A stretch of DNA of 64,000 nucleotides from Lytechinus pictus (taxonomy: Eukaryota), in assembly GCF_037042905.1 (NCBI RefSeq), contig NC_087251.1:682001-746000 (forward strand). Direction: 5' to 3'. Made by a program: the position numbers and the translations under genes. The notes beneath the pieces were generated by a model. It made no database searches. It saw nothing but the letters and a program-made list of their open reading frames with translations, and had not been told where the DNA came from. Below, piece after piece: positions 5,801-40,411 of this stretch; the stretch's first letter is position 1, and each line of letters starts with the position of its first letter.

Positions 5801-8800
5801 AGGCATGAAAAGATGCCTCAAACAGTTTTCTTCCTCTTTTTTCTCTTGCAAATTGTGTTTTAGGCACAAACATTATTGATATCATCAGAAAGCTCAAACT
5901 CTATACTTTCTTACTATGTCACTTTTGATATGTGGCACCTTTTAGATGGGTCAGCAGCCAGCTTTTTCCAACAAATGTTAGACAAGATTTCTTAAATTTC
6001 TGAGTAGCATAAAATCCAGAGTTCTGATTGGTTAAATAGTGTTTTCAAAACAACAGGTGTGGGTAATTTGATGAGATTACCACATGGTGAGTGTGACCTT
6101 GCAGAGGCCCAGTGTGGGAACATTGGAATTTGCGTGGGTGTGTGGTCTCTATGACCAATCAGAGCGCAGTATTCTTGTTTTTAAACTGCTAAATGTACTT
6201 GGCCTGTAAAAAGCTGGTTGCTGACCCATCTAAGATACCTCTTCTTATAAAAATTATATCATATTAAAGCTTAGATCTTCAGCTTTATCATAATCTAAAG
6301 ATTATTTGGGCCCAACCAGAAATTAGGTGTAAAAACAACAAGTTTTGTTCGCATAAAAATAATTATTTTGTTTCATGTTTTAGATCAAAAGTTTCATCTA
6401 TGTTACAAAATCTTTTTTTTAATCCAGAAACATGACCTGAAAGAATGATATTTCTTCTTTATAATGACACCAAAAACATGAAATTTGGTCAATATTTAGA
6501 GCAGCAATGGCCGAATAAAAAGAGGTGTTTTCATCCGCACCAAGCTCATTAACAATGCAAAAACCCTCTAGTCATGAATATCACTTGGATAAAAGAAGCA
6601 ACCGGGGGGGGGGGGGGCCATTATGGCCCCCCCCTTAAGATCTCAGCCGCGGATTGCGCGATCACAACGAAAATTTGCATGATGGTAGAGAACGACGTAA
6701 TCTACGCAGTTGCATTGGCAAATTTCACTGAATTCATATATTTTTATTTTATATGAATTCATTATGCTAATTTATTCATGAAATCGTATTTTTTGCTCTG
6801 ATACACTAAATAAAGCTCCTAGAATGCTATTTTTTGGTGAAAATATTCTTTATAGCATTCCTAACAATTGTAAATGAAAAAAATTCTGGTACCAAGACCG
6901 ATTTCTTATGTATTTTATTGTTTTTTAAATTTCTTATGTATTTCTTTGTTTTTTTACTTTTTGTTTTGTTATTGTTTTTTCGATGGAAATCGTTCCAGAC
7001 TTAATTCTGATCATAAACAAGGCAAAATTAATTAAGTTTGATAAGTAAAAGTAGAAATAATGATACATTTATGAATTTTGGCTAATACACAATCTGCATT
7101 GGATTTGTACATGAAATCACGAGCAATTTAGGGTCTGACATGCACTTACATAATGTTGTGTAATGTCGTAACCGCGTACCCGGGAGTCACAAAATTGGTC
7201 TAAAACTTTGCGCGAGACTTAAAAGTAAAAAGTCAGTGAGCGGCAAGGTCAAAAAAATTTGCACAGCAGATATATCGCGAAAATTGTCGAGGGTGGGCCA
7301 TTATGCCCCCCCCCCCCCCCGGGAGAATTAGGGTTAAGCCCTTGAAGTGTTTTTTTTTTTTTTTTGGGGGGGGGGGGTTGTTTTGTTTACATACTCTGTA
7401 GGATTTTGATCAAATGCAATGAAAACCTGTCTCTGCTGATTGGGCTACCCTTTTTAAATATATGTAATAAATAAAATTTCTGGTTTTTGGATTCATTTTA
7501 TAGTTTGTGGGAATTTTGTATTTATTTCTGTATTTTTTCCCTTTTTTATTGTTTTTTATGGAAATTGGATGGAAAGGAAATTTTTCCAATCATAAACAAC
7601 ATGAAATTAATTGATTTCAATTAGTAATAGTAACTATGACATACCTACCAATATTCCTATTTTAGGGAAAAGAAAATTGCCATTTTAACTGAATGGCAAT
7701 ATTACTAAATTGTACTTTTGCGAGCCCTGGCCATGGAAAAAAATTTTCTTACTCTCTTCTTTTCTTTAATTTTTGTCTTGCCTGCATAGCAGAGCGAGAT
7801 TATAGGCGCCACTTTTCTGACGGTGGCTGCGGCGTCGTCAACATTGAAATCTTAAAGGTGAATGAAACCTTTGGAATAAGTGGGCTTGTGTCGAAACAGA
7901 AAAATCATAGAAACAGATCATCAAAAGTTTGAGAAAAATCGAACAAACAATGTGAAAGTTATGAGCATTTGAATATTGCAATCACTATTGCTATCGAGAT
8001 CCTCCCATTGGTTATGCGACAAGGATGTGTGATGTCACATGTGAACAACTTTCCCTTTGATGGAATACCCCCAAAATGTCTCTTTTTGCTTTTTCTTATG
8101 GTGATACAAACTCTTTATCCAAGATGTATTCTTTAAAAATCTGAATTACATGCCCTCCTATAGAAAGAACACATGATCTACTGATAGATGTGATAAAAGA
8201 GGCAATTGAAAGGGGAATCCAACCCAAATAAAAAGTTGTTTTTATAAGAAAAAGAAAAATCAGACAAGTTGATAGGTGAAAGTTTGAACAATATTGGACA
8301 AACAACAAGAAAGTTATGAATTTTTAAAAGTTGTAAATATTCGTAATCACTATACTCATGGAGACTTCAAATTGGCCGCATATGGGATGTCATAGTGATG
8401 TAAGGCAAGGACTACTCTTCCATGTACTCCAATACATATTATGGCTAAGATGTCATTTTTCCCAAAAGTTTTACTTCAAATTATATTTTTCTTTCATGAG
8501 GACATTAAACAATATACTACCTGGGTTATATTTAGATTACTGCCCCAGGGGAATGGATACTTAGGAGAAAACCACAAATCCCTGATAATAAAGTACATGG
8601 CCTATGGGAAAGTAGTCTAGTTCTAGACGATTTTAAACGAATCTATTTGCACCACGATATAATACGTTCTATTCCGTGCGTACGCCCAGCCGAGTGTGCG
8701 CGCAAAACCGAGAACCTGTACTCCGAGGAAAAATCGTCTAGACCAGTTGCTCTGCGGTGACGTCAGAGGTCAAAGGTCAACGGACGAGTGCTTCATAAAT

Positions 8801-11800
8801 ATGCATGAGTTACTTGTCAATCTCGCCGCGCCGAACAACAGTGCAACGTTGTTTACGTTTTGCACGTGTTATCAGCTGTGTGCATGCATTGTACACATGG
8901 GATTGATGTAATACTCAGTAGATCTACGTGATATCAATACATGTACACGTATCATACGAAAGTTTGAGATAGTTCATTATTTTTAAGGCTACAAATAGAC
9001 ATTTCATTGTTGGGAAATTACTGTAACATGCATAGGCCTATAGTTATTTCACTCAATGTGCATATCTTGGTTAAATCTGTGGGTATGATGTTACCATCAT
9101 GATATATGAAAGAAGGTGCTATTGTACCAAATTTCAAACTTCAAAACAATACAGACTAGTTTTTCCACTTTATTCAGATGGAATAATTAATATACAAGTT
9201 TGAATGATATATTTTATATTCTTCTTCATCTACACATGTAATTACATAGAGGTAATTTGTCTTAGTATGGGTATTGAAAATTAAGACTCATAAATGTAAA
9301 CTCTCATTCTTGTGAATGGATCACATCACGGTACATTTTACTGTGGGCACTTGTAAATATATCATTTTCAATGTCTTCTTCACATATTTCACTGTCAGAG
9401 AGTATGACAAAAAGGGTTGAGAAGTACATGTACTTTGTACAGATTAGTACAGAGCTGTGAAAGGGATAAGGAAAACAGAATAAAAATCATTAATGATTTT
9501 TAAAAGTAGATTAATCTCAGGCTCACAAAAATTTTGTATGCGGATTTTGATGCGTGCAGTACATCAGATTTTGGAAGAAAATCTTTGCAGTTGTCCTTGG
9601 AACTTTTAGTTTATTTATTTACTTTAAAAGAACATCTAGATAATGCGTACAATTATTTTTGTTGTTCAGCTACATTATAATCTAGCTACATGTAGCCAGG
9701 AAATGATATTGCCAATGATGTACATGAAGCCTCTTCGATAAATAAAGGCACCTTTTCTCATTACATTTGAAGTACAGTATTTATGAAATATATTTTTGCA
9801 GCCATTATGAAAGAGCATATTGTGTTCAGATCTACATGTAATTTGCCAGTTAATTAAATTGCTAGTAACTATTCCATTGCAGTGTAAGTTTTACATGTAG
9901 TTTGCATAGGCGGATCCAGCTTTTGGCGAAAGGGGGGGGGGGCACACTGCCGAGCGGCGCACATAATTATTTTTGCACTTCACCGGCGCCATAAAAGAAA
10001 ATGTTGAAAAAGGGCTAAAGTCTGACCCTGTCAAATGCTCTTTTCAAAATGTAGGACTTTCAGTCATGCCATTTTACATGACCACACGCAGATAATATTT
10101 CCGGGGGGGGGGGGGGAACTCGAACATATTTTTGAAAAAAATAAAAATAAAAACGATAGAGTAAACGGACCGAGCTGCTCAATGGGGCGATTATTTTTTT
10201 TACAAGTGTAATAAAAGTATTTGGTGCACATCTCACATTTGCACATTTTTCATAGTTTTCATGAAATGTTAAGGGAAAAAATGTGTTTTCACAACAACTG
10301 ATCGGGAATTTGCCCCCCCCCCCCTTCCCCCTTGCTGCGTACGAACATTCCCTGAAGTCCACTTAAACATATATCATTATAACAGAAAATATACATGAAT
10401 ATAAACATATAATCTTTCTAAGACATATATAGAGAGAGATTGAAAAACTTATTAAAGAAAGAAACAAACAAATTATGCATGTTATGTGCGATTTCAAAAT
10501 CTCGTGTACTAACCCTTTTATTGCGATGAGGCAAATACTTGTGTATATTAATTGAGATACAAGTTTTTTTTTTACTATATATACAAAGGGGCGTCGATCC
10601 TTTTTTCAGATTGGGGGGGGGGGCAAAATCATGAATCAACTTTCCAAAGACGCTCGATCACACAAAACAAACTCACACACACTCATATGTATATATATAT
10701 ATATATATATATTTCAGCGCGAGCTGAAATTTTTTAGTATACTGACCTGAAAACAGGAAAAAGGTGCCTTTTAAAGACTGTTTGTAGTAACTCATGAGGA
10801 GAATACATATCTCACTACACAGATAATGCGAGTGCCGAGGGCGAGCTGAAATTTCTTTATATTCTGACCAGAAAGCTTGATATCTTATATGCATTTTGGT
10901 ACCAATGATTAAGATGGGTATCTAAAAAAGACAATAGATGCGAGCGCGAAGCGCGAGCTTAAAATTTTAATATTTCGATCTGAAAAAAATGAGTTTAATG
11001 GACGTTTTTAAAAAAGAACAAGATTATATCCAACAAAACAATATGATCGACGCCTCTGTATATACAATGATACTACATCATGAATCATTCGGAATACATC
11101 ACCAATCCAGGTTTATATATTATCATTCAATTTTCATGTACATGATGTATACATCATGTACAGAATTTAGTATATATTGTGATGCTTTTCACTAAATCTA
11201 ATGCAATTTGTAATGATGAGTAATTTTATCTAATTAATTTGATGAAACTGGATATGATGGTTATGACCTGAATTCAGAAAGAGATCCTTCAAGACAGAGC
11301 TTTGGAAATAGTTCTCCTGTTTTACAGGTATCGTTATCTTTGTATTTAACTTCTTCCTGAGTGATCAGATGAATAATATTTAACTTAATGGAAGATGAAA
11401 ATAAATCAAATTTTGTGGCGTAAACATTTAAACGTTAAAACAAAGATATTGACAAACTGTATTAATACATTGAAAATGATATTTAGTGGTTTAAGGTCTA
11501 ACGAATATACGTCTGGTTGCGTAATTATACACTCCCTGTAATAGCAACGGGTTTTAGCAAAGTTTTGGACTAAAATATCGAATCATCTTCATAAAACACT
11601 TTAGTAGCTGTCTTACACTAAAGGCCATACAGGTGGCACAACGTGGAATGTGTAAAGAAGAAAAGTGACTGACCTTTTTTATTAAAGCATTGGAAAATAA
11701 GATCAAAATTAAAGGATTTGCTCTACGCTTTTGTATGATTCTGGGATATTTTTCAATAACAAAAGTTTAGATTTTATGACATCTGTGTGAAACTCCCCCG

Positions 11801-14800
11801 CCCCAGTCCACTCTGTAAGGGCATGTGATAAGCTTTGTTATGACCATTCAACAATAAAATGTATAACCAGGTGCCGCTGACCATTCTTGACCGGCGCCGA
11901 TCTAGATTTGGTTGGCAATAGGCCCTTCTTCATTATTCTACCGGCGCCTAATTATTGGAACCAGGGGACGCTGATTATTCTTGACCGGCCCGATTTAAAT
12001 TTAGGTGGCGCCGGTTAAGACAAAGGCAGTGCCGATTTGTCTTGACCGGCGCCGATTTAGAACAAGTAGTGCTGATTATTTTTACCGACGTCCAGACGTC
12101 ACGTAAGATTCAGGCAGCGGCAAATGATCGACTGGCGCCGATTTAGAACCAGGAGGCGCCGATTATTCTTGTCCGGCGCCGATTTAGATTTAGGTGGAGC
12201 TGATTATTCTTGATCGGCGCCGGTTAAGACTCAGGCAGTGCCGATTTATAATCGGATGGCGCTGATTATTCTTGACCAGCCCCGATTTAGAATGGCGCTG
12301 ATTATCCTTGATCGGCGCCGGTTAAGAACTCAGGCAGCGCCGATTTTTCTTTACCAGCGCCGATTTATAACCAGATGGCGCCGATTATTCTTGCCCGGCG
12401 CCGATTTAGATTTAGGTGGAGCTGATTATTCTTGTCCGGCCCTGATTTAGATTTAGGTGGCGCTGATTATCATTGATTGGCGCCGGTTAAGAACACAGGT
12501 AGCGTCGATTTTTCTTGGCGCCGATTTATAACCAAATGGCGGTGATTATTCTTGTCCGGCGCCGATTTAGATTTAGGTAGCGCTGATTATTCTTGATTGG
12601 TGCCAGTTATATGCTGGCAGCGCACAGCTGATAATTTTTTACCGGCGAAGTTGTTGGGAAAAGGGTAGTTAAAAGAAAAGATAAGGAAGATGATATGACA
12701 TTATTGTGCTTTGCTGGGGGATAGTATTTCCTTTACTGTCGCTAATATTATATCAGTGTATATTTTTTTTAAGCGGCGCCTTTTCTTTTCTTTCCTTTAT
12801 TTTTATTTTTTCAAGCAGCGCCTTTTCTTTCTTTTACTTTTCTTTTATTTTTTAGGGGGGGGGAGCGCTCCCCCTGCGCCATCCCCCTGGATCCGCCACT
12901 GGTTTGTGATTTTTTTTATTTAGAAGCTGTAGTATTAAGAAGTAAATATCTTAAAGTCACTATAGCGTATCTAAGGGGGGGGGGCAGTCTGCCCCCCTGA
13001 CGAGCCACAACCCATGCAAAGGACGTATCCTGGCCCCCTGACGAGATTGAAAGGCCTTTTTTGCCCCCCCCCCCTGACGAGCTTGAAGACCTTTATTGCC
13101 CCCCCCCCCTGACGAGCTTGAGCTTGAAGACCCTTTTTTTTTTGCTTGTCAATTTTTTTTTCAGGTACGAAGTTCTTTATTTCACGGTGATTGAATACTT
13201 TTTTTTTTGCCCCCCCCCCCTGTGGAAAATTCTAGGTACGCCACTGTTTCAATTCAATTCAAATTTATTTATTTCACTTCCATCAAACAAAAACAAATTG
13301 TGTACCATATATAAACATAAATTTTTGTATCCGTTGTAAACAAAATTAATGATACATCTGTTGTGAAAAAAACACTTAGACAATTTGGGCAACACATTGT
13401 AGGTTTTAAATATGTATACTATTTTTCAATAGAAATTAAATTAAGATGGAAATGGAGGGACCCACTAAAAAGCAATGCTTGTACATTGTGGGCCCCTCAA
13501 GAAATAGATAACACAACAAATAACAAAATAACAAAGTATAAATACAGATAATCAAATGAGAAAAAATGAATAAATGAGAGGGAAACACTCACAAAATAAA
13601 TACAAAGTTATCAAAAATATATAGTTTGATAAAGGACAAAACAACCCGTCCTCAATACCTACCCTTCCCCATCCCCCCCCCCCCCCCAGAAAAAGAGAAG
13701 AAAAAAGGGGAGAATGCCCTGAGAAGATGGATGGGTGCTGCTGTACGTAGATAGAACACATGCCTCAAGCAAACTGGATTCAATGATGTGTATAAAAGGA
13801 GAAAAAATATATAAAATAACCTGGAAAGAATATAATGCACAAAAAATATGATTGATGCCGTAAACAAATAACCGGTAGGAAGGCGGATAAGCGGACAGGA
13901 GATGAGAAAATAAAGGAGAGGATATACACAATAATGAGCACATCTGAGAAGGACTTGTGTCAGATTTTTTTTTTAAATAAAAAAAGGATAATAATTATTT
14001 TATGTTTTAATTGTAGTTTAAAGTAATAATGATGACTTGACAGAGATGATGAATTAAACTTAATTTGGGAGTATATTATAAGGTTTTAATAGAGATAATT
14101 TGAATTTAGTCTTAAAAGAGTTCAAAGATTTTGCATTTGTTATATCATTATGAAGTGAGTTCCATAACTTCGGTCCATCATATATAAATGTGTTCTGAGC
14201 CCGCAACGTTCTTAAAAGTGGTAAATGAAATTCACCCAATCGCCTTGTTGGATAGTTGTGAATGGATTGATTTTTTTGGAAACATTGAATTAAATACATT
14301 TGGGAGGTTGTTGTTGTTATAGTTATACATAAACTGACCGAGATTAAAGTGATTAAAGTGATATACTGTACGTACAAATATGACCGACTTGTTTCGAGTT
14401 TTGTTTTACCGCATTCAGGTCATGGTTCTTTATGATTTTTTTTGTTCCAGAGAGAGTTTACTCAGTCCACTTCAACATATGCAAAATGGAGACAATTACT
14501 GGATTCTTGTTCTACTGCAAATGCCAATTATTGTTTGGTCAGCCATACTATGAAAAAACTGTACATTTCAGATCAAACTTGCCAGTTAAAGGACAAGTCC
14601 ACCTCAACAAAAAGCTGACTTGAATAGATAAAGAAAAATCAAACAAACATAACTCTGAAAATTTCATCAAAATCGGATGTAAAATAAGAAAGTTATAACA
14701 TTTTTAAGTTTCGCTTAATTTTTCAAAACAGTTATATGCACATCTTAGTCAGTATGCAAATGAGGGGACCGATGACATCATTCACTCACTATTTCTTTTG

Positions 14801-17800
14801 TATTTTATTTTATGAAATATGAAATATTTTGATTTTCTCGTCATTGTCTGTGAAACAAAGTTGTCTGTGAAACAAAGTTTCATTCCTCCCTGAACACATG
14901 TAATTCCATTATTCTCACATTTTGTGGTTCGAGCAAAGGGGTACTAATTGTCGAATTCGTACAAATTGAAATATTGTATTATTCAAACAATAAAAAACAC
15001 AAGAAATAGTGAGTGAGTGACATCATCGACTCTCTCATTTGCAAATCACCGAGTTGAGTATAGAACTGTTTTGTGAAAAATAAGCAAAACTTTAAAATGT
15101 CATAACTTTCCTATTTTACGTCCGATTTTGATGAAATTTTCAGCATTATTCATGTTTGATTTTTCTCTATTTATTAAAATCAATTTTTTCTTTGCCATAT
15201 TACTGCCATGTGAACAAAGGAAGCAACTCTGTCTCTGTGGAACAAGTTTATGAGGAAATTAGTAAAATTGTCATTGTCATTTTACATGTGGAAATATAGA
15301 ATTTCTTGTTTTTTTTAAGAAACTTGGGGCCATGTGACTTCAATTAAACTGGCATCATGAAGAGCTTACATAATTAACCCAAATCAAGGGGGATGGTCAA
15401 TTTTGAAGGATAAAAAGTTGCTACCCTCCCAGTAGGAACACTCAAGAAGACATCGTGGCCTCGGAGGAAACTTTTTAATTCGAGAGAACTTTGTTCTGTT
15501 GGATCTTCAAAGTCGTTGTTCCCAACTGTTTGGACATAGGCCTATGTATGCAGGATGGAATCTCTGATAGAATGACGTTCATTTTCCGTCGCCATCACAC
15601 CATATAAAAAAAACGAAGATAAGTGATCAAGACCTGTATGCACACTATAGCTGATTTGGTAAACAAGCAAGAAACTGAATTTGGAAACCGCGCGCAGTAT
15701 ACAATACACAATACAACCAGGGAGTCTCCCTGATACAACAGCACGATACAGTACACAAATCTATGGCTTATGTTGTGCTGCTTTGTGCGATCCGATTGAT
15801 TCTGTAATCCATATACGATAGTCTACGCTTATAAACCCTATTGTAGGTATCAGGGGAAACATACACGATACGATTCATTTCTGATGTTTTTGTGTGTTTA
15901 ATTTGATTTCTTTTATCAATTATTTATAACAAAAAGTCCTTTCTTAGGTAATTGATATTCATTTTATCGGTAGATCACACCATATTTCTCAACCGAGTAA
16001 TCTTCCCTGCTGTTAACAAAGACTAGCGGCTAAACGGGAGGCGTGTCCACTTTTAACGACTTTCCCTCAAAAATCTGAGGGAGTGACGTCACCGCAGAGC
16101 AACTGGTCTAGACGATTTTTCCTCGGAGTACAGGTTCTCGGTTTTGCGCGCACACTCGGCTGGGCGTACGCACGGAATAGAACGTATTATATCGTGGTGC
16201 AAATAGATTCGTTTAAAATCGTCTAGAACTAGACTAATGGGAAAGTTGTCCTTGCCCCTTGTCATAATTTACTTACACAGTTGCCAATTTGAAATGTACA
16301 TACTATTAGTGATCTCAATTTTAAAGCAGCTATAACTTTCTTATTGCTTGTCCGATGTCTTTCAAACTTTCACCATTCTGTTTCATTTATTTTTCTCCTT
16401 CCCAACACAACAGTTTATGGCCAAGGCTGGATTCCCCTTTAAGTGAAATATATACTAAAGTAATGGGGAGAGTTGTTCACAAGTGACATCACACATCTTT
16501 GTCGCATTGCCAGTGTGAGGATCTCCATAGCATTACTGATCGCAATATTCAAATGCTCATAACCTTCACATTATTTGTCCGATTTTTCTCAAACTTTCGT
16601 TGATCTGTTTTCTGTTTTCACAAAAGCTATCTTGTTCTAAAGGTTTCATTCTCCTTTAACCAAGGTTAAGTTTTTGAAATGTCATCATAACTTAAAAAGT
16701 ATATTGACCTAGTTCATGAAACTTGGACATAAAGGGTAATCAAGTATTACTGAACATCCTGCCTGAGTTTCAGATCACATGGCCAAGGTCAAAGGTCACT
16801 TTGGGTCAACAATCTTTGACCATTTTGGGGGTATTTGTGGAATTGTCATAACTTTGAAATTTTATGGATCTAGTTCATGAAACTTAGACATGATAGCAAT
16901 TATAAGTATCCCTGAACATCCTGCCCGAGTTTCAGGTCACATGACCGAGGTCAAAGGTTATTTAGGGTCAATGAACTTTGACCATTTTGGGGGTATTTGT
17001 GGAATTGTCATCATAATTAGTTTATGGATCTAGTTCATGAAACTTGGACATAGAGTAACCATGTATCCCTGAATATCCTGTGCACGTTTCAGGTCACATG
17101 ACCAATATCAAAGGTCATTAAGGTCAATGAACTTTGGTCATTTTAGGGGTATTTGTTGAATTGGCATCACAACTTAAAAAGTTTATGGATCTACACATGT
17201 AGTTCATGAAACATAGATATAAGGGTAATCAAGTATGTTTTGCACACATCTTAGGTCACATGATCATGGTCACGTTGAGTCAATGGACATAGTATTTTAT
17301 TGTCATATGAGTGTTTTCTTTTGTGAATAATTTTTCAATAGCTGTTTTCAAAGACAGCTTTGCTGCTATATCGAATTGCATTATGCAGGCGAGACTGCCA
17401 GTGGCGTTCCACTTGTTACTTATTTATATATAATTATTCATTTTCAAATCGTATTTTTGTCTCGCCTGCATAGCAGAGCGAGACTATAGGCGCCGCTTTT
17501 CCGACGGCGGCGGCGGCGTCAACATCAAATCTTAACCTAAGGTTAAGTTTTTGAAATGACATCATAACTTAGAAAGTATATGGACCTAGTTCATGAAACC
17601 TGGACATAAGGTTAATCAAGTATTATTATAGAATGGATGGGGAAATCCCTGCAATCTGATTGGTTGAGAGCTATGCAAGAATTTTTACTGGCTGCATGAA
17701 CGATATCCCGATAATCAAAACGATATCCACTGTAAACAAGCTATCGTCCGAAAAGGTCATTGTGATGTCATTGCGCATGTACTGTTACGCTTGTTTACGT

Positions 17801-20800
17801 CAAATTTTTGAATTTTCGATCAAGGCAGAATGAATCAAATAAAGGATGCAAAATTATCTGTAAGTACAAATACGGTACCGTAATTGTCATTAGGATTAAA
17901 ACTGCCTACATACTCGTTAGTTGAGAAGTCCAGACATACGATCTAACGTGCCCTGGGCTGGCTGTGCACAGCCAAACCTCAACTGCAGGCCCAGGCAGCG
18001 GCGTAGGCACTGGCCCCCGGCGCGGCCCGGGCATACCGGTACCTAGTCAATGCAAAGCTGTATCTGGCATTTTGGGTATAATAATGCCTTTGTGCCAACA
18101 TATTTTCAAGTTAGGCATACATATTTTTTGTTGTCCAGGGTTATCAATTGGTCTGCATTACATTTTGGAATTTTCATACATCTGGTAATAAATCATGCGT
18201 CCGGTAAAAAAAATCATGCGTCCGGTAAATATTTTCATGCGTCCGGTAAATTGAATTTACCGGACGCATGAAATTACCATGTATCCGGTAAATCATTAAT
18301 TTTTGTGGTTTATTCAATAATTTTTTTTCCATTCTATAAAACAGATGATGCATGGGTTTATTTCGTGGGTCAGTGGAACTGTGTGCACTCGGTAACTTTG
18401 GCATTATGGTCTAAACCCACTCGGCTGCGCCTCGTGGGTTAAACCATGCCAAAGTTACCTTGTGCACACAGTTCCTACTGACCCACTCTAACCCATGCAT
18501 CATTTGTATACTGAACATCCTGCCTGAGTTTCAGGTCACATGACCAAGGTCAAAGGTCATTTAGGGTCAATGAACTTAGACCATGTTGGCAAAATTATTT
18601 TCAAAATCTTAACCAAAGGTTAAGTTTTTGAAATGACATCATAACTTAGAAAGTATATGGACCTAGTTCATGAAACTTGGGCATAAGGTTAATCAAGTAT
18701 TAGTGAACATCCTGCTCGAGTTTCAGGTCACGTGACCAAGGTCAAAGGTCATTTAGGGTCAATGAACTTTGGTCAAGTTGGGGGTATTTGTTGAATTACT
18801 ATCATAACTTTGATTATTTATGGATCTAGTCCATGAAACTTGGACATAAGGTTAATCAAGTATTAGTGAACATCCTGCCTGAGTTTCAGGTCACATGACC
18901 AAGGTCAAAGGTCATTTAGGGTCAATGAACTTTGGCCAAGTTGGGGGTATTTGTTAAATTACCATCATAACTTTGAAAATTTATGGATTTAGTTCATGAA
19001 ACTTGGACATTAGGTTAATCAAGTACCACTGAATATCCTGTGCGAGTTTCAGGTCACATGACCATGGTCAAAGGTCATTGAACTTTGGCCGTGTTGGGGG
19101 TATTTGTTGAATTACCATCCTAACTGTGAAAGTTTATGGATCTAGTTCATAAAACTTGGGATATAAGAGTAATCAAGCATCACTGAACATCCCCTGTGAG
19201 TTTCAGGTCACAAAACCAAGTCAAAGGTCAGTTAAGGTCAATAAACTTAGGCCATGTTGGGGTAATTGTTGAAGTGCCATCATAACTTTGAAAGTTTATG
19301 GATAGAGTGAATGAAATGTGGACATGGGTGTAGTTGACAGTCTTAAGTCTCCGTTCAAATGTCATTTATGGTCAATGAACGTGGTATTATGTCATTATAT
19401 GAATGATGTTTTTGTGAATGATTATTTTATAGTAGTTTTCAAAGTTAGCACTGCTGCTATATTAGATTGCGTAATGCAGGCGAGACTGCCAGAGGCGTTC
19501 CACTTGTTTTCTTTACATTGTACAGATTTTGTATGTTTTATGGCCAAATAAATGATAATAATGATAACTCCAGTGTTCTTATTTCTGGAATTTCCTTGTA
19601 ATTTGTTCCCATTTCTGTCAGGATTGGCAGCTATGTAATTATACAATTATGAATTTTGGGTCTAACATGCAGTTGTATAATTTTGGTAATGAGTAACAGC
19701 ACAAATTCAGTCTTCAAATGGTGCATCACGACGTTGTAGATTTATCATGTAAATAGTTGAAAGACATACTGGCCCGAATTCACATTGGTATTTTGAACCC
19801 ATGGTTCATGCAGATTTCCTGTATGAATTAAGCCTAATTTACCACATATAATACAAATGTCCTATGCTGACACATTTTGTCACAGTGTGCCAAATTGACG
19901 TCTGTGGCCATAGTTAAGTACGCTATTTTATTCACGATTCCACTGCTTTGAATGAAATGAGTCCCTGTTCAAAAAAGGGAACTCATGAATAAAATAGCAT
20001 ACTCAACCATGGCAACAGGTGTCATTTTGGTGCACTGTGACGAAAGAGCATCAGCATTGGACAATTTTTATTATACGTGGTATTTAAGCGTCATTTATAG
20101 TGGGTTCAACCGATGGTTTTCAAAACCACCTTTGTGAATTTTTAGGTTTAAGGCATGGTCTTGTGACTATTGCTGCTAATTCTCTTTGCCCTGATTATTG
20201 TTGTAGTTAGTACAGTACTACTCGTCATGTGATAACAAATGATTAGATTCACTGTGATAGACAACTTATTTAGATCAATTCAATTAAATGGGGTTTTTCA
20301 ATGTTTCCTTTTTCAATGTGATATAGTCCTGTACTTCGTCCAAAAAACAAGTTATTTTCATTGTTTGTAACTTCCCTTTGTTTTGTTTTGAATAAAGGTG
20401 ATATTTAAAAAAAAACAGCTTAAACTGATTATTTTCCTGCATTTGTTACTCTACATAATTTTCTATATTGGTACTTTTTACTTGTTTTGTTTTATAATCC
20501 ATGATATTGACCTGCCATTTGTTCGAAATCGACCTGGTCTCTTTATGTATGTATTATATCATTGTCTTTAAACTTGAATAAAGTCATGATTCCACAAACC
20601 TCAAGATATTTCTAAAATTTTGAAGACTTGGTTTTTATCAGTTTTGGGAGATAACTATGTTTATTCTTGTCATAAATTTTATTTTATATTTCATGAGATT
20701 GACATTAACACTACTATTGGGAGAATGATTAATGTTTCCTCAAGAAAACATCAAGAGATTAGCCCTGCACAATTTTGTTATCCATGCTCGTAACATTTTT

Positions 20801-25950: not shown

Positions 25951-28900
25951 CACGTACGTGAATCCCTCCAACTCAGTGTAAAAAGTGGGCGGAGCTTAAT
26001 CGGATTTTCGGGCCTAGCAACCCTGTTAGCAACGCCTGTTAGCATCGTTTGGCTCAATCTCCATAATGTCTGCGATATTAAAATCCTACGAACTGATGGA
26101 ATTATTCAAATTTAGTAAGGCTATGAATGTTTATCATTTACACTGACTATCGGTGTACAAACTCATACCGAATTTAAAGGCAATTGCCGGTTATATTACG
26201 AATTATCAGTCATTTTGATGAGTGATACAAAGTGCCAAAATTTATGAAAATATAGCGTAAATTTTATATAGCATTTCAAAATCCTTATTTTCAATATCCC
26301 CATAATTTTTTGTTGTTTTAAAAAATATCTTATTACATTAACCAGAATTTTCCCGACCTGATAACGTTAATAGATTACTGTTTCTCGGCTTTATGAGGAA
26401 ATGCCAGACCTTCAAAATCAGGTTAATTTTTGTTATATTTCTAACAGAAAATTGTTAGATTCTAACTACTATACCAACTGTACGCCCGAAGGAGGGTTAT
26501 CATCTCGTATTGTTGTGTAAATGATACATAACAATTCATTTCAGGAGTGTAGTAATCCATGTTAGATAATCTTTTTCACGATGAGTTTTGTAATGAAGAT
26601 AAAAAATCAAGTTCATTCTTGGCACGCGAGCCGCAGAATGATAAATGTTAGCGTGCGCAGACGGGGCTGATCCCTAGTGTGTCGGACGGGATTATCTAGT
26701 CCCATACTGGTCATGCTGGTTTCGGGTGGTATATTCCACGTACCTTTTCCCCTTGCGATGACCACTGTCCAGTTTTATAGTGCTTAATGTTGATACTTAA
26801 TCTGTGAAATGAATAGTTTACCGATATCTAAAAATGCTCTAATATACCTGACACATGAATGATTTCATTTTCGAGAATCATTATTTCTTTCGACCTGCAT
26901 GAATCACAAAAAGTCAATCTTATGGGTAAAGAATGTGTACATTGACTGTATATACTCTAGTTAAAAATGAAAGAATTGTCAAGGCTTGGGAAATATCGTG
27001 TTAAGTTTGCCCAATGTCATGAGTATCTCACTGTATGTTAAACAGATCACAGAATGACTGTAAACTTTGTAAATTCCACGGCTGCCTCCACGAACTGGGA
27101 CATGAAGACGACATGGCGGCTCCTGATTTGTTAAAATAAAAATGATGGCAATATTTACAACAATTTTGAATCATACAACTGCGATAAACCAGGCTCTCGT
27201 GATTCGGTGGATAGTCCCTATAACCATTGCAAGAAAGCAAAACATAATTTCGTAATGACCTGGGCTGATTGGCACTTTGCGAGAAATGTCTCGTTTTTGT
27301 CTCACCTGCATAGCAGAGTGAGACTATAGGCGCCGCTTTTCCGACGGCGGCGGCGGCGGCGTCAACACCAAATCTTAACCTGAGGTTAAGTTTTTGAAAT
27401 GACAGCATAACTTAGAAAGTATATGGACCTAGTTCATGAAACTTGGCCATAAGGTTAATCAAGTATTACTGAACATCCTGCCTGAGTTTCATGTCACATG
27501 ACCAAGGTCAAAGGTCATTTAGGGTCAATGAACTTAGACCATGTTGGGGGAATCAACATCAAAATCTTAACCTAAGGTTAAGTTTTTGAAATGTCATCAT
27601 AACTTAGAAAATATATGGACCTAGTTCATGAAACTTATACATAAGGTTAATCAAGTATCACTGAACATCCTGCATGAGTTTCACATCACATGACCAAGGT
27701 CAAAGGTCATTTAGGGTCAATGAACTTTGGCCGAATTGGGGGTATCTGTTGAATTACCATCATAACTTTGAAAGTTTATGGATCTGATTCATGAAACTTA
27801 GACATAATAGTAATCAAGTATTACTGAACATCCTGTGCAAGTTTCAGGTCACATGATCAAGGTCAAAGGTCATTTAGGGTCAATGAACTTTGGCCAAATT
27901 GGGGTATTTGTTGAATTACAGCCATAAATTTGAAAGTGTGTTGGTCTAGTTCATAAAACTTGGACATAATAGTAATCAAGTATCACTGAACATCCTGTGC
28001 GAGTTTCAGGTCACATGATCAAGGTCAAAGGTCATGTAAGGTCAAAGAACTTTGGCCACGTTGGGGGTATTTGTTGAATTGCCATCATATCTCTATAAGT
28101 GTATTGGTCTAGTTCATAAAACGTGGAAATAAGAGTAACCAAGTATCACTGAACATCTTGTGCGAGTTATAGTAGTTTTCAAAATCAGCACTGCTGCTAT
28201 ATTGAATCGCGTGATGCAGGTGAGACGGCCAGAGGCATTCCACTTGTTAGACTTTCGGCCATGCAATCTAAAGCACTTTTTAAAAAATCTTTCTAACAGT
28301 AGTTTATTAATTTTAAAATTAAAAAAAATGTAGTTTCTGTGTTGAAAACGGAGGGAAGATTGGAGAAGCCTTTCGGCTCTCAATCCAGTTCCTCTTCCTC
28401 CTCCTCCTTTTGTATATACCATCCCTTTATCTTTCTTATTTCTAATAGTAATTCCTGTTTTTATCGTGTAAATATTAAGATTTTACCTTTTATCATAATG
28501 GGGATCCTACAATAAGCTTTCCAGCTGTCCGAGATTACTGATTTTAATGCTACTGTATTTTATTTTGGTGACTGTATTCAATACAGTCAATAAATTGATT
28601 TTATTAGCCAATCTGGCTAAACACAATCAATTCATCAACCAATCAGTCAATTTTCTGCTGGTCCCATTGGCCCCCATTCTCTGCTACTGAGACTGACTAG
28701 GTGGTAGAGGGAGGGGGGGGGAATAATCATCATCTCACCGTGCTCACTGCCGCCCCAGACAAGTGCCTGTTTGATATATTTTAATTGCAAGGGCTTCTCT
28801 TTTCCTCCTATATCTCCCTGTTCTCTCTTTCTTTGTTTTTGCGTTCGTGCCATTATATATCTCAAAGATCAGCTCTCCCTATTTCCACTGTCTTGTATTA

Positions 28901-30349
28901 TTCCTTCCCTCCTGTTATGGTCAAGCTCTCCTCAAATAAAGCTTGCCCTATTAATATTTGCCCCTCTGTCATTCTACCGGCCTGCAATCTCCTTTTGGCC
29001 CCTTAATTTTTTTTTTCTCTCGGCCTCGACCCCTCCCCAATCTATTTCATCCAACCCTTTTTACTCCCCCAACTCACCATGATTATAATTTATAATCACA
29101 AGAGCCTGGTAATAGGCATATTGAAGGTCCTTATAAATATTGCTATTACTTTCATTTTAACAAATAATTTGAGTGCCCCCCCCCCCCCCCGGCGGTCATG
29201 CAGGTCGGCTTCATATGTTCCATAATGGTGTAGGCGGTCGTGGAATTTACAAAACATATAGTTGTTTTATATTTTCTGTTTAACATATACCGAGATGCTG
29301 ATGACATTGGACAAACTTAACACGATATTTCCCAAACCTATATCTTTAACTATACAGTCAATGTTACACATTCTTGACATCAGTTTGACTTTTTGTAATT
29401 AAGGAAAGAAATAATAATCACCGAAAATGAAATAATTTATGTGTCAGGTATATTCCGAGCATTTTTAGACATCGGTAAAGTATGAATTTCAGAGACTGAG
29501 TATCAAAATAAAACACTAAAACTGCACAGTGGTCATCGCGAGGGGAAAAGGTACGTGAAATATACCACCTGACTCCAGTATCGGACTGGATAATCTGAAC
29601 AGACAGCCAGGGCGATCAGCCCCGTCTGCACACGCTAAAATTTAGCATTCTGCGGCTCGCGTGCTAAGAATGAACTTGATTTGTCTGTTCATTACGTAAC
29701 TCATCGTGAAAAATGTTATCCAACATTGATTGCTACACTCGTAATATTTAATGTTATGTATGATATACACAAAATTATGAGATGATAACCCTTCTTCGGG
29801 AGAACAATGGTATAGTAGTTCGAATCTAACTATTTTCTTTTAGAAATATAACAAAAAATAACCTGATTTTGAAGGCCTGAAATTTTCTTATGAATGATGG
29901 AGAAAATAAGCTACCAACGTTATCAGGTTGGAAAAATTATAGTTAATGTAATAAGATATTTTTTTAAACAACAAAAAATTATGGGGATATTGAAAATAAG
30001 GATTTTGAAATGCTATATAAAATTTACGCTATATTTTCATAAATTTTGGCATATTGTATCACTCATCAAAATGACTGGTAATTCGCCTTCTTACACACAC
30101 TTGCTTATAGTTTCGATATAGGTTGATACATCGATAGTCAATATAAATGATAAACATTCATAGTCTTACTAAATTTAAACGATTTAATTAGTTTTTAGGA
30201 TTTTAATATCGCAGACATTTTGGAGAGTGAGCAAGAAGATGCTCGTAAGTGTTGCTAACAAGATTGTTAGGCGACCTACCGCGAGAGGGCTTTTATAATG
30301 GCGGGCTCCGCTGAGTTGATGCAAAGCCTATAGGCGGTTCACGTACGTG
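25951..30349. mobile_element. Fold-back DNA transposon derivative with ~1.15-kb inverted arms (Chapaev/CMC-like ends)
   Basis: Ends CACGTACGTGAA / TTCACGTACGTG; 4-bp TSD TATT (25947-25950, 30350-30353); arms ~25951-27110 and ~29205-30349 align as reverse complements. Confidence 0.8.
27296..28248 (+). mobile_element. HINE family A copy, nearly identical to 384-1330
   Basis: Same ends and units; differs by two extra GGC and only a few substitutions seen by eye. Confidence 0.88.
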
Positions 30350-30968: not shown

Positions 30969-31491
30969 CTGGACTATTTTGAGCCATGAATTACTGTCAG
31001 TCATCACTAGTTAGGAATCCATAAAACAAATATTTTGATCCTGTAATCACTAGATAATCACTCTTGTATATTGACAGATCACTAAAATTGGTGAAATTAA
31101 GAAAATGTGAAGGAGATTGGCACCTGTCAACATGATTTCTCATCTCTCAAATTACACGTATTCAGATTATTATTGCAGTTCTTCCTACAGATACATTCAA
31201 GTATTTGTTTCAATGATAATACCACCCCCCCCCCCCACAAAAAAAGAAAAAAAATATTGAGTTACAGGCATAAACAGAAAACATTGGAGTAAAAGGTTAG
31301 GATATCCGATCTAGGCCATTGTGACTCCTTATATTTCAGTCTATCATTTTTCCCCAATTTCACCCCCCCCCCCCCATTTTATCAGTTAATACAAATCAAG
31401 TTTGTATACATATTAAACAAAAATAATAAATCAGCTAGAGAGTGTCTAACAATAAACAAAACTGACTGATCACATTAAATGTAATATTAAA

Positions 31492-32022
31492 AGGGATGGT
31501 CCAGGCTGGAGATATTTATATCTCAATAGGAGCAAAATGCTGAAAAATTGATCAAAATCTGAGAACAAATAACGAAGTTATTGAATTTCAAAGATTTGCA
31601 TTATTCCGGTGACGTGTCTTTATGAATATTCATTACGTGGGCTGATGTCGTATCCCCACTTGTTCTTTTGTATTTTTTTATATGAAATTAGGTTTATTCA
31701 AATTTTTTCTTTGACAACTGATTAAGTGCATTTGTTTATTACCGCAACTTATTTCATCATAATGGAGACACATCATTTACAGATGTATGAAAAAATGAAA
31801 CAATTATGATTTCATGTAATAACATAAGAAAGTGGGGATGTGACATTAGCCCACCTAATCATGACGATGTGCATATAACTGTTTTCACAAAATATAGATA
31901 ATCTTTAAAGTTCAATAACTTCGTTATTTGTTATCCGATTTTGATAAAAAATTTCAGCATTTTGCTCTGTGAATTTTACTCTATTTATTTAGATATAAAT
32001 ATTTTCAGCCTGGACCATCCCT
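31492..32022. mobile_element. Kolobok-like MITE (AGGGATGGTCCAGGCTG TIR)
   Basis: 17-bp TIRs and TTAA flanks; an isolated right half of the same family lies at ~32940-33122. Confidence 0.8.
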
Positions 32023-32730
32023 TTAAAGGGTCAAGATTTGTTCAACTTGCTCTCATTTCTTTATTTCTGTATCAATTGTGTTTACACTTTGTACAAATAA
32101 TCATTGGGTAACACCACACTTGTGTGGTTCATGAGGATGATAAGGTCATAGGTCATCTAAGGGTCATAATAAATCATACAAGACTCTGTTATTTATATGT
32201 GGTTCATAAAATATGGACATATGTAGTTAGAAATGAGGCAAAAATTTGGGGGATGGGATTGGTTGAGATATATTTGGGGAAAATTTGGAGTAGGCTAAAC
32301 AAGATAAGGAAAAGAAATCAGGAAAGGGAGGGAAAAGAAATGTGTGTCAATGTATAACTTCCCTCTTTTATTTTTTGCTCTTCACTCATCTTCTCTTAGA
32401 TGGTTGCCAAAGGAAATTTTTCAGGTTTTCTGTCCATTTGTCTGTCCCAATTTTCATTCTCATAACAAAAGAACTGTTGGAGGGATCAACTTTTAATATG
32501 GTCCAAGCATGCATACAGTAGTGTTGATATAGTGATAGGTTTGGGGTATTAAGGTCAAAGACCAAGTGTCACAGAGTTTTAAATTCCAAGCAAAGATATT
32601 CATTGACTAAAGATCCGGTATTTACAATAAACAACCAACAAATCCTCCTGTGTATAAAGCAGAAAGATACAAGGTGTACATACAAAGATTACTAGTATAT
32701 TAAAATAATATCTTGCTTTTGCGATACCCG

Positions 32731-32875
32731 GGGCCCGTTGCAGAAAGAGTTGCAATCGATTGCAACTCTAAAAATCATGCGCAACTTGATTTTCAACCAA
32801 TCAACAGCGCGCATTTGGGACTTGCGATTGATTTTTTGACTTGCGTTTAATCGCAACTCTTTCTGCAACGGACCC
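32731..32875. mobile_element. PIF/Harbinger-like MITE (GGGCCCGTTGCAGAAAGAGTTGC family)
   Basis: TIRs and CCG/CTG flanks; an inverted relative lies at 48565-48708. Confidence 0.7.
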
Positions 32876-34093
32876 CTGAAGATGGACAATGAGCTGATTT
32901 GGAGATCATGAGGTCAAATTTCTAAAGGTCAGAGGGGTAATCATCAGCCCACCTAATGAATATTCATGAAGACATGCCTTGAACTGTTTCACCGGAATAA
33001 TGCAAATCTTTAAAATTCTATAACTTCGTTATTTGTTATCCGATTTCGATGAAATTTTCAGCATTTTGCTCTGTGAATTTTACTCTATTGAAATATAAAT
33101 ATCTCCAGCCTGGACCATCCCTTTAAGATAATATGAGAAATCAACTGCAAACTTGGCACTGAGTGAAGATGGGAATTCAGGGTAACAAGGTCAAAGGCCA
33201 TTATTTCAAAATGGCAGAGTCATCAATCTTGAAGTCACTGACAACATGATTTATGAAACATTTGACCTTGTCTTGAATGCCAGTCATTGACACACACATA
33301 CATATATTGATTAACTACTTTAACACACCAGACATGATGATATAATTAAAGACACACCATAAATTGTTGTTTATAAATTAGCAAATTTATTACAAGCATT
33401 TCCCATTTTGTACACTAATATTGCTGAATTGAATTTAATGCATAGACAAAATCTGCCTCAGTAGGTAAAGCAATATTCTATTCCATATTCAACACAAGAG
33501 GGAGACTTTCACATGGCAAATAAAGCGATGTTTCTTCAATGAGGGGGAAGGGTGACTTTTACAAAACAAGACAAAGAAAATCATCATTTGGCTCATTTCT
33601 ACAGAGGTTGTTTTTCACATGGAGGGATGTGCAGGAATGCAAGTTTATGACTAAAAGAGAGTGTTGAAAGAGGGAGTTACATAAAATAAGGGGAAGATGG
33701 CATCTTTCATCCCTTTGTAAAGTGAATATTTGATAATTACATATTCACTTTACAAAGGGATGAAATATAGAAGGCAAGGCGACAATGAGAGTGAATAAAC
33801 TAAGAAAAACAATTAAGATATCAAAAAGAAGTTTAGATATTAACTCAGCTACCTGAAAAATAAAGAAAAGTATAGAATTTTAAGTTATGTTTTCGGTTCT
33901 TGCAGGTATCATTAACAAAGATACAATGACCTAATTCAGAAAAGCTTGAGAGATAGAGAGTGGGGAAGAAAAGAAAAATGCAGAAAGACGGGTTTTAAAA
34001 TTTGAACAAAGTATTACTTGGAACAGAAAGGAAAGAGAATGTGAATAGGATAAGAGATGGTGAGTGGGTCCCGAGAAGTAGAGAGGTTGATAG

Positions 34094-34664
34094 AACAAGG
34101 TGGTTCTCGAAACAAGGTGGTTCTCGAAACAAGGTGGTTCTCGAACCAAGAGTCTCGCCTGATATCATGATCAATATAATATGCAATATGATCTTTTGAC
34201 CTTAGCACCCTCATGGACACACGTGTGGTATTACCCACTGGTTATTTGTACCAAACACAATTGATGAAAAAATAAAGAAATGAGAGCAATTCAAACAAAA
34301 ACTTGACATTTTGACCCATTTATGACCTTTGACCCGATCACCCTCATGGACACACATGCGTATTACCCCCCAAGGATCATATGTACTAAGTGTCAACATA
34401 ACTGATGCAGAAATAAAAACAAGTTAAACAAAAACTTTAGCATTATCATTTGACCTTTTGACCCCTATATGACCTTTGACCCGATCACCCTCATGGACAC
34501 ACATGTTGTATTACCCTAGGATCATATGTACCAAGTGTCAACATAATTGATGCAGAAATAAAGAAATGAGAGCAAGTTGAACAAAAACTTTAACATTTTC
34601 GAACAGACTAACAGGTTAAGTGATTACGAGGTCTCTACCGAACTTCGTTCAGGCGAGACAAAAA
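34094..34664 (-). mobile_element. HINE family B, with a triplicated 3'-terminal 17-mer
   Basis: On -: T-run, subTIR GTCTCGCCTGA with nearby inverted AGAGAC, internal tandem units (TGACCTTTGACCCGATCACCCTCATGG on +), 3' subTIR TCAGGCGAGAC, hairpin GGTTCGAGAACC and CCTTGTT end. Confidence 0.75.
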
Positions 34665-36340
34665 GAGAGAATTATTGAAAAAGCAAAAAAGGGAAAGGGG
34701 AAAAAGTGTCTAAAAATGGAGACATACAAATGCACTCACACATCAGTAAGTATTAGAAGATGATTGAAAATGAAGAGTGGTTAAATAATTAAGGGAGTGA
34801 CTATGAAAAAGTAATCACAATTTTAAAGGAATTTACACATATAAAAAATAATAATAAAGGAGCAAACAATAAAATAAAAAATTGAATTTCTGAACTATAA
34901 AACAGCAGCAGATAGTACAAGGCTACAAGCACCTACATGCAGTGAAAATCACTAGTTATAAATAAATAAGAGAAAGAAAGGAAGTTAACAGAGTCCTGAA
35001 TTTTTTTTTATTTAGTATTCTGAAACTTTCACAACCAAATCTAGAAAACGCAGAAGAAAAATACACTCATTTTATGATAAATAAATAACTTTGGTTGAAG
35101 GATTTTGGACATTAATTAACAAATATCTTTACAGTATCATTTTAAGCTTAGAATAATTCAATAAAGAATGAGTTGTGGCTTTTGAAAAGGTTTTCATTGT
35201 AGTAAGAAAACCACCGGCAAATAACAAATTACATAAAGCTATATATACAACACTTAATTATTTAAATAATAAAATAGCTCATTTTTTAAATAATATATGG
35301 AGTTACATAATTATGAGCAATAGATATCAAGTGTCTGCAAGTGTGTATATACATTAAATGTAATGAGAAGCAATGGAAACTGGAAATAAAAGAAATTAAT
35401 TTGATACCTAATATCAATGAGGGTGGGAAATAAATCAAGAATGAATGGATCTTTAATACAGAATAATATATGTACAACCAGTGTACAATAAATGTAAAAT
35501 CAAAATTATAATTATAAGTACACTATTGTACAAAGAAAAGAGTCAACATAGACAAATAAAATAATAAAAGAAGAAATTCATTGAGTTGAGTTCAATGCAT
35601 TGAAACAAATTTGGCATAATATATTTCCACCTTCGCATAAGTGCAGAATCAATTTTACTATAAAGCAACATATTTTTGTGTGCACAGATCAAAATCAACC
35701 TAAAACAATAGATGCTACTGCAAACATTTCCATGCTGATTCAATATTTGAGCATTATGAGCAATTCTGCATTGATGTAATGACATAAAATCTGACTGCAG
35801 TGAACTCACTGAGAAATTATTCATTCATGTAGGGTTTGATATCTTGCCCCTTTGAGACTAGTAATATGCTCCAGTCATTTTCTAAAAGTTTTTTTTACCA
35901 GAGTAAGTCTATAAAAAAAAAAAATTACAGGAACAATTTTAAAAATGAATTTTTCTAAAAATTGTGATTGTCAAGAGAATATATGAGAAATAAGATTGCA
36001 AGGTTCATCAGATATCAGAAAGTAGATCAGAATTTTATTCTAAAACAAGGAATAGAAAATATATTAGGATTTACATGTATTGTAGTCTAGATGTATCATA
36101 CAAGCATGGATTGGAAATGAACTCATCAAACTGAAATACAAGTAGATCATTTGTTTGAGAGGCGACTACATCACAACTGGTATACAACATACAATGTATT
36201 CTCCAATTACGCTGGCTCTAACAATTAACTACATGATACCAGTATGGGACTTGTTCATTGCAATAAATTAACAATAGAATGTTTAACAGTCTCTTCTTTT
36301 GCACTAGTATGGGGAGTGAGCTTATTTGGTATTACAACAC

Positions 36341-36444
36341 TCATCGGAGGGGACCTTAAGCCGTCGGTCCTCTGGTTGCTTGCTTACAAGCATTCATGCT
36401 TTCTTAGCAATCAGGTAAAAAATCACCACCAATCAATCAATCAA
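36341..36444 (+). mobile_element. SINE/LINE 3' fragment
   Basis: GGAGGGGACCTTAAGCCGTCGGTCC core and a (CAAT)n tail. Confidence 0.45.
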
Positions 36445-39400: not shown

Positions 39401-39998
39401 TAATTTCACAGAACTTCAATAGTTCTCTCCAAGAATTTCAAGTGCATGTAAAGCTATTCAGATTCGCATGTATGCTCTCTGAAGTCTTTAATGGCACATA
39501 CAATATGTATGGCCTCACTGTAAATATAAATACCCGGTACACTCTGGATTTACCCTTCAGTTATACATTATGGGACAAAGGTATACTATGTATTCACTCT
39601 GGCCATCAGATAGCATTGCAACTTTGACAGATTAGGGCAGTCATTCATGAACATTATGAAGTATTGAATAGCTAATCCAAAGTTGAATTAATAGAGATAT
39701 CAGTTATATTGGCTAGTAGTTTATCCAAACTAGAGGCTATTATGACTTACAAGCATAGCGATCATGTGAATCCAGTTCCTGCAGACCTCTTTCTCTGAAT
39801 AAGTTGACAAAACAAAGGGGCCAAGGTCTTCCTTCATAGAGATGCATTTATTACCACAGTTTTCCTAACAATGAGACTTAAAATCTTGGCAAATGAAGAA
39901 AAGGTTACTGACATTGTAGAATATCTCTGTGGTATTTCTCATAAGGTCTTTCAGACAAGCTAATGAGAAAATAAAGAGTCTGTGATGATACATCTAGC

Positions 39999-40411
39999 TC
40001 ACACGGGTTGAATGCTTTTTCCAACGGCAAATAAATCACTGTACCTCTTCATATCCTTCCCATCTAACACCACACTATTAACACCTGACTTTGCTGGTAA
40101 ATTGTCTTTAAACATGGCAGAATCTCGAATTGAGTCTCTATTGTTGCTATTTTTCACATCTGTGTTTTTTGTCTTAACAGCCGTAGTAGTGATGGCTGGG
40201 GGTGGCTGACCCTTACCCCCGATGGGTTTGACATTGACGTGATAGAGCAAGCGGTGGCGCCGCTTTGTGACGAAAAGAAGAAGTAGAAGGACTATACAGA
40301 TTGCAAGGAGGATAACGAGAATTGACATAACGACTGGGTAGACCGGGAAAGGATGATGTTTAGCAGCAATAGGTGTCTGATTATCACCAGACTGTTCCGC
40401 AATGTTGGAAT
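39999..40411 (-). CDS. CRIM1: CRIM1 last coding exon: TM helix (VVMSILVILLAICIVLLLLLFV), basic stop-transfer segment, cytoplasmic tail ending SIQPV*
   Basis: caacag acceptor, TGA stop; lies within ORF 39999..40454. Confidence 0.9.

Follow-up and report, generated by a model that had tools for sequence, protein, structure and literature searches.

A young, non-autonomous 7.6-kb transposon with perfect ends in Lytechinus pictus, probably derived from the helicase-encoding AcademH lineage

The question raised by this locus is what kind of transposon left a long element with flawless ends inside a nest of host repeats, and whether it belongs to a known group. The element occupies positions 8613-16236 (7624 bp) of the window, by which is meant the whole 64,000-nt stretch of Lytechinus pictus DNA that was analysed (NC_087251.1, 682,001-746,000 of the forward strand, assembly GCF_037042905.1; GC content 36%). 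It starts with TAG and ends with CTA, and has long terminal inverted repeats (TIRs) flanked by a target-site duplication (TSD). The first part of the question has a clear answer: the element is a genuine cut-and-paste DNA transposon that inserted recently, as a single unit of 7624 bp with a 9-bp target duplication. As to its kind, our preferred reading, with a probability of roughly 0.65, is a non-autonomous element derived by internal deletion from the helicase-encoding AcademH lineage. This makes it an ordinary representative of a known group, and no new system. The positions of its parts and of the surrounding repeats are collected in Table 1.

The two TIR arms are complementary at 153 of 153 positions (100%), and the complementarity breaks off after base 153. 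Beyond that point no extended or bipartite TIR was found, the local score of 22 being equalled in 146 of 300 shuffles. The two ends are thus identical, that is, symmetric, with no offset second block. Both are bordered by exact copies of ATGGGAAAG; for this one insertion all duplication lengths from 2 to 15 were tried, and 9 alone gives a match. The first 19 TIR bases, with up to three mismatches allowed, were found at the element's two ends only, and two matches were obtained in none of 100 shuffles. The perfect 153-bp TIRs, the perfect 9-bp TSD and the TAG..CTA termini described in the sequence-only reading of this stretch are therefore all borne out, the TSD also by the read evidence given below.

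Each TIR has more structure than its outer tip. Close to the end there is a 14-bp near-palindrome, and within the arm an exact inverted 13-bp repeat, which is longer than expected by chance (no dinucleotide shuffle in 1000 reaches 13, the largest being 12). With up to one mismatch the 13-mer is confined to the two TIRs, and its two copies are a candidate pair of transposase-binding sites. The TIR is also rich in CpG, with an observed-to-expected ratio of 1.73 vs 0.44 for the window. Folding of the whole TIR showed no unusual hairpin stability (z -0.92), and a search of positions 7000-18000 against Rfam gave 0 matches.

The symmetric ends and the internal 13-bp repeat (0 of 1000 shuffles) would also suit an unclassified lineage characterised by TAG ends, 9-bp TSDs and ends composed of a unit that contains an inverted 13-bp site. 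The first 16 TIR bases are absent from the literature text searched, a blank that says little and is no proof of novelty, since Repbase and Dfam lay outside the search. However, repeated binding sites within TIRs are common, and both the TSD and the termini agree with a lineage already described; we regard a separate lineage as distinctly improbable. When the first 18 TIR bases were used to scan metagenomes, 7 loci turned up, none of which continues in a TIR-like way (13-21 of the following 62 bases) or has a matching second end and TSD. Two of these lie in coding DNA resembling long terminal repeat (LTR) retrotransposons, a third belongs to a phage-like contig, and another two (one sequence found twice) sit within another small inverted element; all 7 were taken as chance. 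Within the window, a possible second TAG..CTA element with a 9-10-bp TSD (31008-42398) has ends that agree at 9 of 14 bases and was likewise judged to be chance.

Further evidence on the boundaries comes from sequencing reads, for which four runs (X1, X8, X10 and X24) of the 24 listed were compared with positions 8060-16660 at 85% likeness. A joint from 8603 to 16237 occurs in 4/4 runs, and skips 7633 bases, which is the element (7624) plus one 9-bp copy of the TSD. It is carried by 2 contigs in X1, 5 in X10 and 1 in X8, and by 346+275 reads from 172 starts in X24. These empty-site joints fix where the element ends and how long its TSD is, but they are no evidence of a polymorphism at this locus. 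The flank is itself a multi-copy MITE (miniature inverted-repeat transposable element), with a depth of 10^4 to 10^6 in X1 and X10, so that the joints are most simply explained as paralogous empty copies of this MITE. Pieces running from the TIR into the element's own backbone are also present, in X1 and X8 (15705-16147 and 15803-16187). It is true that no single contig across the whole 8060-16660 stretch is among the pieces listed, as might be expected of an assembly artefact or a chance inverted repeat, but the TIR-to-backbone pieces, and the restoration of exactly one TSD copy at the joints of every run, make such an explanation barely credible.

Read depth differs along the element. In the right backbone it is 14-17 in X1, 0.2-8 in X8 and 0 in X10, where the TIR reaches about 400. 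This pattern fits a TIR that is common to other elements with different interiors, read depth here not being equivalent to copy number. In X1 the left backbone (8921-9781) has a depth of 50-100, about three times that of the right (15235-16095), and the left end may perhaps be common to other derivatives.

The age of the insertion can be judged from its ends and from its setting. Over the paired sites of TIR and TSD there are 0 differences in 162, which bounds the divergence at less than about 1.8%; the insertion is consequently young, which is no proof of the autonomous partner, active in this genome today, that the sequence-only reading had deduced. The element interrupts an inner host MITE, this sits within an outer one, and the outer MITE in turn splits a dispersed repeat, whose rejoined halves match 17453-17640 at 166/182 positions. 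Being the innermost member of the nest, the element is younger than both host MITEs and the dispersed repeat. Joints that remove the inner host MITE (8210-16438) were also seen in the reads.

Identical ends could also arise if gene conversion had recently homogenised the ends of an old insertion, the cargo having accumulated at this same site. In keeping with this, related read sequences depart from the window at TIR positions 8643, 8673 and 8753, and the backbone pieces in X1 and X8 are 97-99% identical, so that the family is more diverged (about 1-3%) than the pair of ends. However, the TSD lies outside the TIRs and is also perfect, and the rows listed include no joint from another sample in which the site is filled; we consider gene conversion very improbable.

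Nested repeats make up about 5.2 of the 7.6 kb (two thirds), and their removal leaves 2389 bp including both TIRs, the element's own backbone. The longest stop-free stretch inside the element is 119 amino acids, and there is no intact open reading frame. The element is thus, as had been proposed from the letters alone, a young non-autonomous TIR transposon, given its identical TIRs, perfect TSD and lack of coding capacity. The accompanying description of a decayed interior needs amendment: the absence of an intact frame stands, whereas the interior consists mainly of nested repeats.

Table 1. Positions of the element's parts and of the repeats around it, in window coordinates (blank: nothing reported).
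Feature	Positions	Strand	Details
Left TSD	8604-8612	+	ATGGGAAAG, 9 bp; exact copy at 16237-16245
Left TIR	8613-8765	+	153 bp; TAG start; 14-bp near-palindrome at bases 3-16; CpG-rich
Inverted 13-bp repeat inside left TIR	8622-8634 and 8730-8742		Bases 10-22 and 118-130; exact
Left backbone	8766-9904		Low-copy; low depth in all 4 runs
Nested TIR element, 3.0 kb	9905-12901		Exact 5-bp duplication; ends 21/29 identical; multi-copy depth in X10
Insert within the 3.0-kb nested element	10584-11058		475 bp
41-bp tandem array (minisatellite) within the 3.0-kb nested element	~12130-12596
Small nested TIR element, 287 bp	12960-13246		Eroded left end; high depth in X1 and X10
Nested repeat, probably 3' end of a long interspersed nuclear element (LINE)	13247-14585	-	119-aa frame at 14063-14419; multi-copy depth in X10
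Nested MITE	14586-15192		TTAA start; last ~20 bases gone; own arms 99/117 identical
Right backbone	15193-16083		Low-copy
Candidate RecQ-like helicase gene, decayed 5' end	15377-15595	-	Begins with ATG (15595); codon 18 is an in-frame stop
Right TIR	16084-16236	-	Identical to left TIR
Right TSD	16237-16245	+	ATGGGAAAG, 9 bp; exact
Inner host MITE	8210-16438		~596 bp without the element; arms 81/104 identical; interrupted by the element
Outer host MITE	7856-16655		~567 bp alone; exact TTAA duplication; arms 165/190 identical; holds the inner MITE

The nested MITE is 81% identical to a complete copy at 54560-55172, and the alignment of the two shows its truncation, which implies an internal deletion at 15192/15193. 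The arms of the nested elements are 72-85% identical, compared with 100% for the ends of the element itself. Since these arms are less alike, and since one nested MITE has been cut by the deletion, the cargo appears to be older than the ends, and we infer that it was gathered before the element's last move. The largest nested element has ends that we take to be hAT-like, for which a 5-bp duplication would be unusual. The repeat at 13247-14585 is presumably an L2/CR1-type LINE to judge from a motif, a label that comes from no database match; no Pfam family was found, and the Atlas gave only unnamed clusters at 0.92-0.93, eukaryotic where taxa were recorded.

The six frames of the left backbone contain no relevant Pfam or NCBIfam family. 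The best candidate for a coding remnant is in the right backbone, where the minus-strand frame at 15377-15595 resembles RecQ helicases up to the start of motif I, after which the likeness is lost. The profiles used here were seeded with prokaryotic RecQ and other SF2 (superfamily 2) helicases. Two overlapping segments over this frame rank first and second of 2136 six-frame segments (E 0.21-0.34), the stretch is the top of the 64-kb window in all four profile runs, and it is also first in the window by a frameshift-aware score with two profiles. The motif follows closely on an ATG, and in the RecQ seeds, too, it comes near the start. The few RNA reads that fall on unique backbone show a strand bias, the depth for the first mate on the plus strand versus the other orientation being 1.08 vs 0 at 15235-15521 and 1.69 vs 0.9 at 15522-15808, as would be expected of a minus-strand transcript, provided that the library is stranded. 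Taken together, the comparison is suggestive of a RecQ-like remnant at 15377-15595.

Several observations weigh against this remnant or against a derivation from AcademH. Shuffled backbones equalled the RecQ-like score in 9 of 150 and 1 of 40 cases, which is not significant. The N-terminal profile was built after the stretch had been spotted by eye, the seeds included no AcademH protein, and the RNA is only about one read deep. With E. coli RecQ as query (tblastn and phmmer) the stretch is not among the matches listed, and neither Pfam nor NCBIfam makes a helicase call there. In a word search 0 of 35 candidates reached E<=10, a PDB search gave one match, which is unrelated, and when 1.84 billion representatives were searched without a profile, two matches came up, both of them repetitive proteins with no helicase domain. 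Nor was any transposase remnant found in 13 chosen open stretches or 24 read-through frames (Pfam) or in 9 frames (NCBIfam). Finally, the arms of MITEs may be imperfect from birth, which makes their lower identity only soft evidence for the age of the cargo. A search for AcademH seeds by way of RecQ gave, among the 120 listed of 7999 matches, prokaryotic RecQ only (all 87-100% identical to E. coli RecQ), together with two viral-contig loci, and no AcademH protein.

The Pfam matches that were obtained are weak. They concern 5 of the 13 open stretches, the best being a PHD finger (E 0.0074) on the minus strand of the left backbone at 9678-9890; in the 24 read-through frames there were two weak unrelated matches, and in the 9 NCBIfam frames one. 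PHD fingers do occur in some Academ elements. The match at 9678-9890 scores 16.7 bits against a cut-off of 24, was not repeated in the whole-frame scan and is probably chance. Some Rehavkus elements are also described as carrying PHD fingers, in the available part of PMC6446971. The accessible portion of a 2017 paper gives Academ domains as having no Pfam match at that date, which makes the missing transposase match weak evidence.

These gaps are of most help to the proposal that the element is a non-autonomous Mutator-like element (MULE) or Rehavkus-type element with captured or nested cargo, and that the likeness to RecQ has arisen by chance. The helicase trace falls short of significance, and the ends suit this proposal well, which tells against AcademH: in the sections of PMC6446971 at hand, MULEs have TIRs often hundreds of bases long and TSDs of 8-11 bp and frequently acquire foreign DNA, and Rehavkus elements have 9-bp TSDs and TIRs of 26-400 bp. 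On the other side, none of the 24 frames contains a MULE transposase family by Pfam, although a deleted copy would look alike, and the window's best RecQ-like score lies inside the element's own 2.4-kb backbone and points inward. Moreover, MULE ends mostly begin with G or C, and not with TAG, with which Academ ends typically start. On balance we think a MULE or Rehavkus origin unlikely, but it is the strongest of the competing readings.

The sequence-only reading had called the element AcademH-like, with TSDs of 9-10 bp given for AcademH and of 9 bp for MULEs. The first figure is the one found in PMC10045372, as far as the text available extends, and the second falls within the range quoted above. 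The AcademH likeness itself is upheld in part: the TSD and TIR fit and there is a weak RecQ-like trace, but there is no transposase, the trace is below significance, and a MULE or Rehavkus element fits too. The further suggestion of an undescribed system has to be dropped, AcademH being a lineage already described.

If a derivation from AcademH is accepted, the following history may be proposed. The parent would have had genes for a transposase and for a RecQ-like helicase, the first ~60 codons of the latter perhaps persisting 640 bp inside the right end and reading inward. It would have taken up several insertions and undergone at least one deletion, keeping its ends, and the composite would later have been mobilised by a DDE transposase from another copy. 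This enzyme would bind both the palindrome at the tip and the 13-bp site in its two copies, and pair the two identical ends; the excised element would then be joined to the target strands at points 9 bases from each other, and the filling of the gaps by the host would give rise to the TSD. If the element is AcademH, the partner should supply a RecQ-like helicase as well, which might open the longer 9-bp stagger. To our knowledge, though no search was directed at this point, neither AcademH nor its helicase has been studied biochemically. It has been suggested, in the part of PMC10045372 available, that TSD length (9-10 bp in AcademH, 3-4 bp in AcademX) tracks the accessory enzyme, helicase or nuclease. 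One could go further and suppose that the helicase-carrying branch of Academ pairs two identical ends with inverted 13-bp sites, this symmetry going with the accessory enzyme and the TSD length, though we hold this to be a doubtful conjecture. Were it true, this composite of 7.6 kb would be evidence that ends of such a kind can carry unrelated cargo of 5 kb.

By itself, the element is one more non-coding transposon within a repeat nest, with no sign of an effect on a gene. Its value lies in being a young insertion with clean ends, which is a handle for finding an autonomous partner in the genome, and which supplies two ends that could go straight into an excision assay.

The remainder of the window contains a gene and several other repeats. 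Exons that encode VWC and Antistasin repeats extend over approximately 40000-63243 on the minus strand, with a likely membrane-spanning exon near 40000-40463; between about 46 and 54 kb, 5 of 7 frames match the VWC and Antistasin domains, which marks the DNA as animal. We take this gene to be CRIM1-like. A foldback-like element of about 4.3 kb at 26012-30272 has long interrupted arms that are 81-94% complementary, no exact TSD being found at the ends tried. At 54162-57964, inverted arms of 165 nt (90%) surround 3.5 kb holding the complete TTAA-type MITE mentioned above, again with no exact TSD found. Near-identical copies of a dispersed repeat lie at 430-1250 and 27348-28168 (100% over references of 268 and 300 nt), with an internal array of 162-192 bp, and older copies of it at about 5150, 7770, 16660, 17450 and 18400. 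Tandem arrays are present at 42966-44424 (period 51-52 bp), about 50480-51600 (11 bp) and about 60170-60530 (GGT-rich, 12-15 bp).

It remains to compare the element with known systems. Kolobok elements have 4-bp TTAA TSDs and RR...YY ends, and KolobokH is recorded from fungi only, in the part of PMC9587614 available. The same source provides a likeness, in that KolobokH has a RecQ helicase as accessory, should the remnant here be real. The element has neither a TTAA TSD nor RR...YY termini, which rules out Kolobok and KolobokH, and the TTAA duplication at this locus belongs to the outer host MITE. To MULEs (Mutator), Rehavkus included, it is similar in its long TIRs, in a TSD within 8-11 bp and in its uptake of foreign DNA (PMC6446971, available sections); it differs in having no trace of a MULE transposase, and in a cargo made up of other repeats, not of host exons as far as tested. 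AcademX would share the superfamily that is our best guess for the element; its TSDs are 3-4 bp (PMC10045372, available text), whereas 9 bp alone gave a match here and neither 3 nor 4 bp did, which sets AcademX aside. For non-autonomous elements, the Repbase rule, as given in the accessible part of PMC4455052, is that at least the first 11 bases and the TSD length match the family. From AcademH as described, the element differs in having no detectable transposase, no significant helicase and about 5.2 kb of nested cargo. To judge by the title of Kojima 2020 (Mob DNA 11:15), cited in PMC10045372 and PMC10799480, AcademH is a lineage of the Academ superfamily in animals and fungi. The element resembles it in being a TIR element from an animal, in its TAG ends, in a TSD of 9 bp where 9-10 bp is reported, and possibly in a RecQ-like helicase remnant; its probable membership rests on the ends and the TSD.

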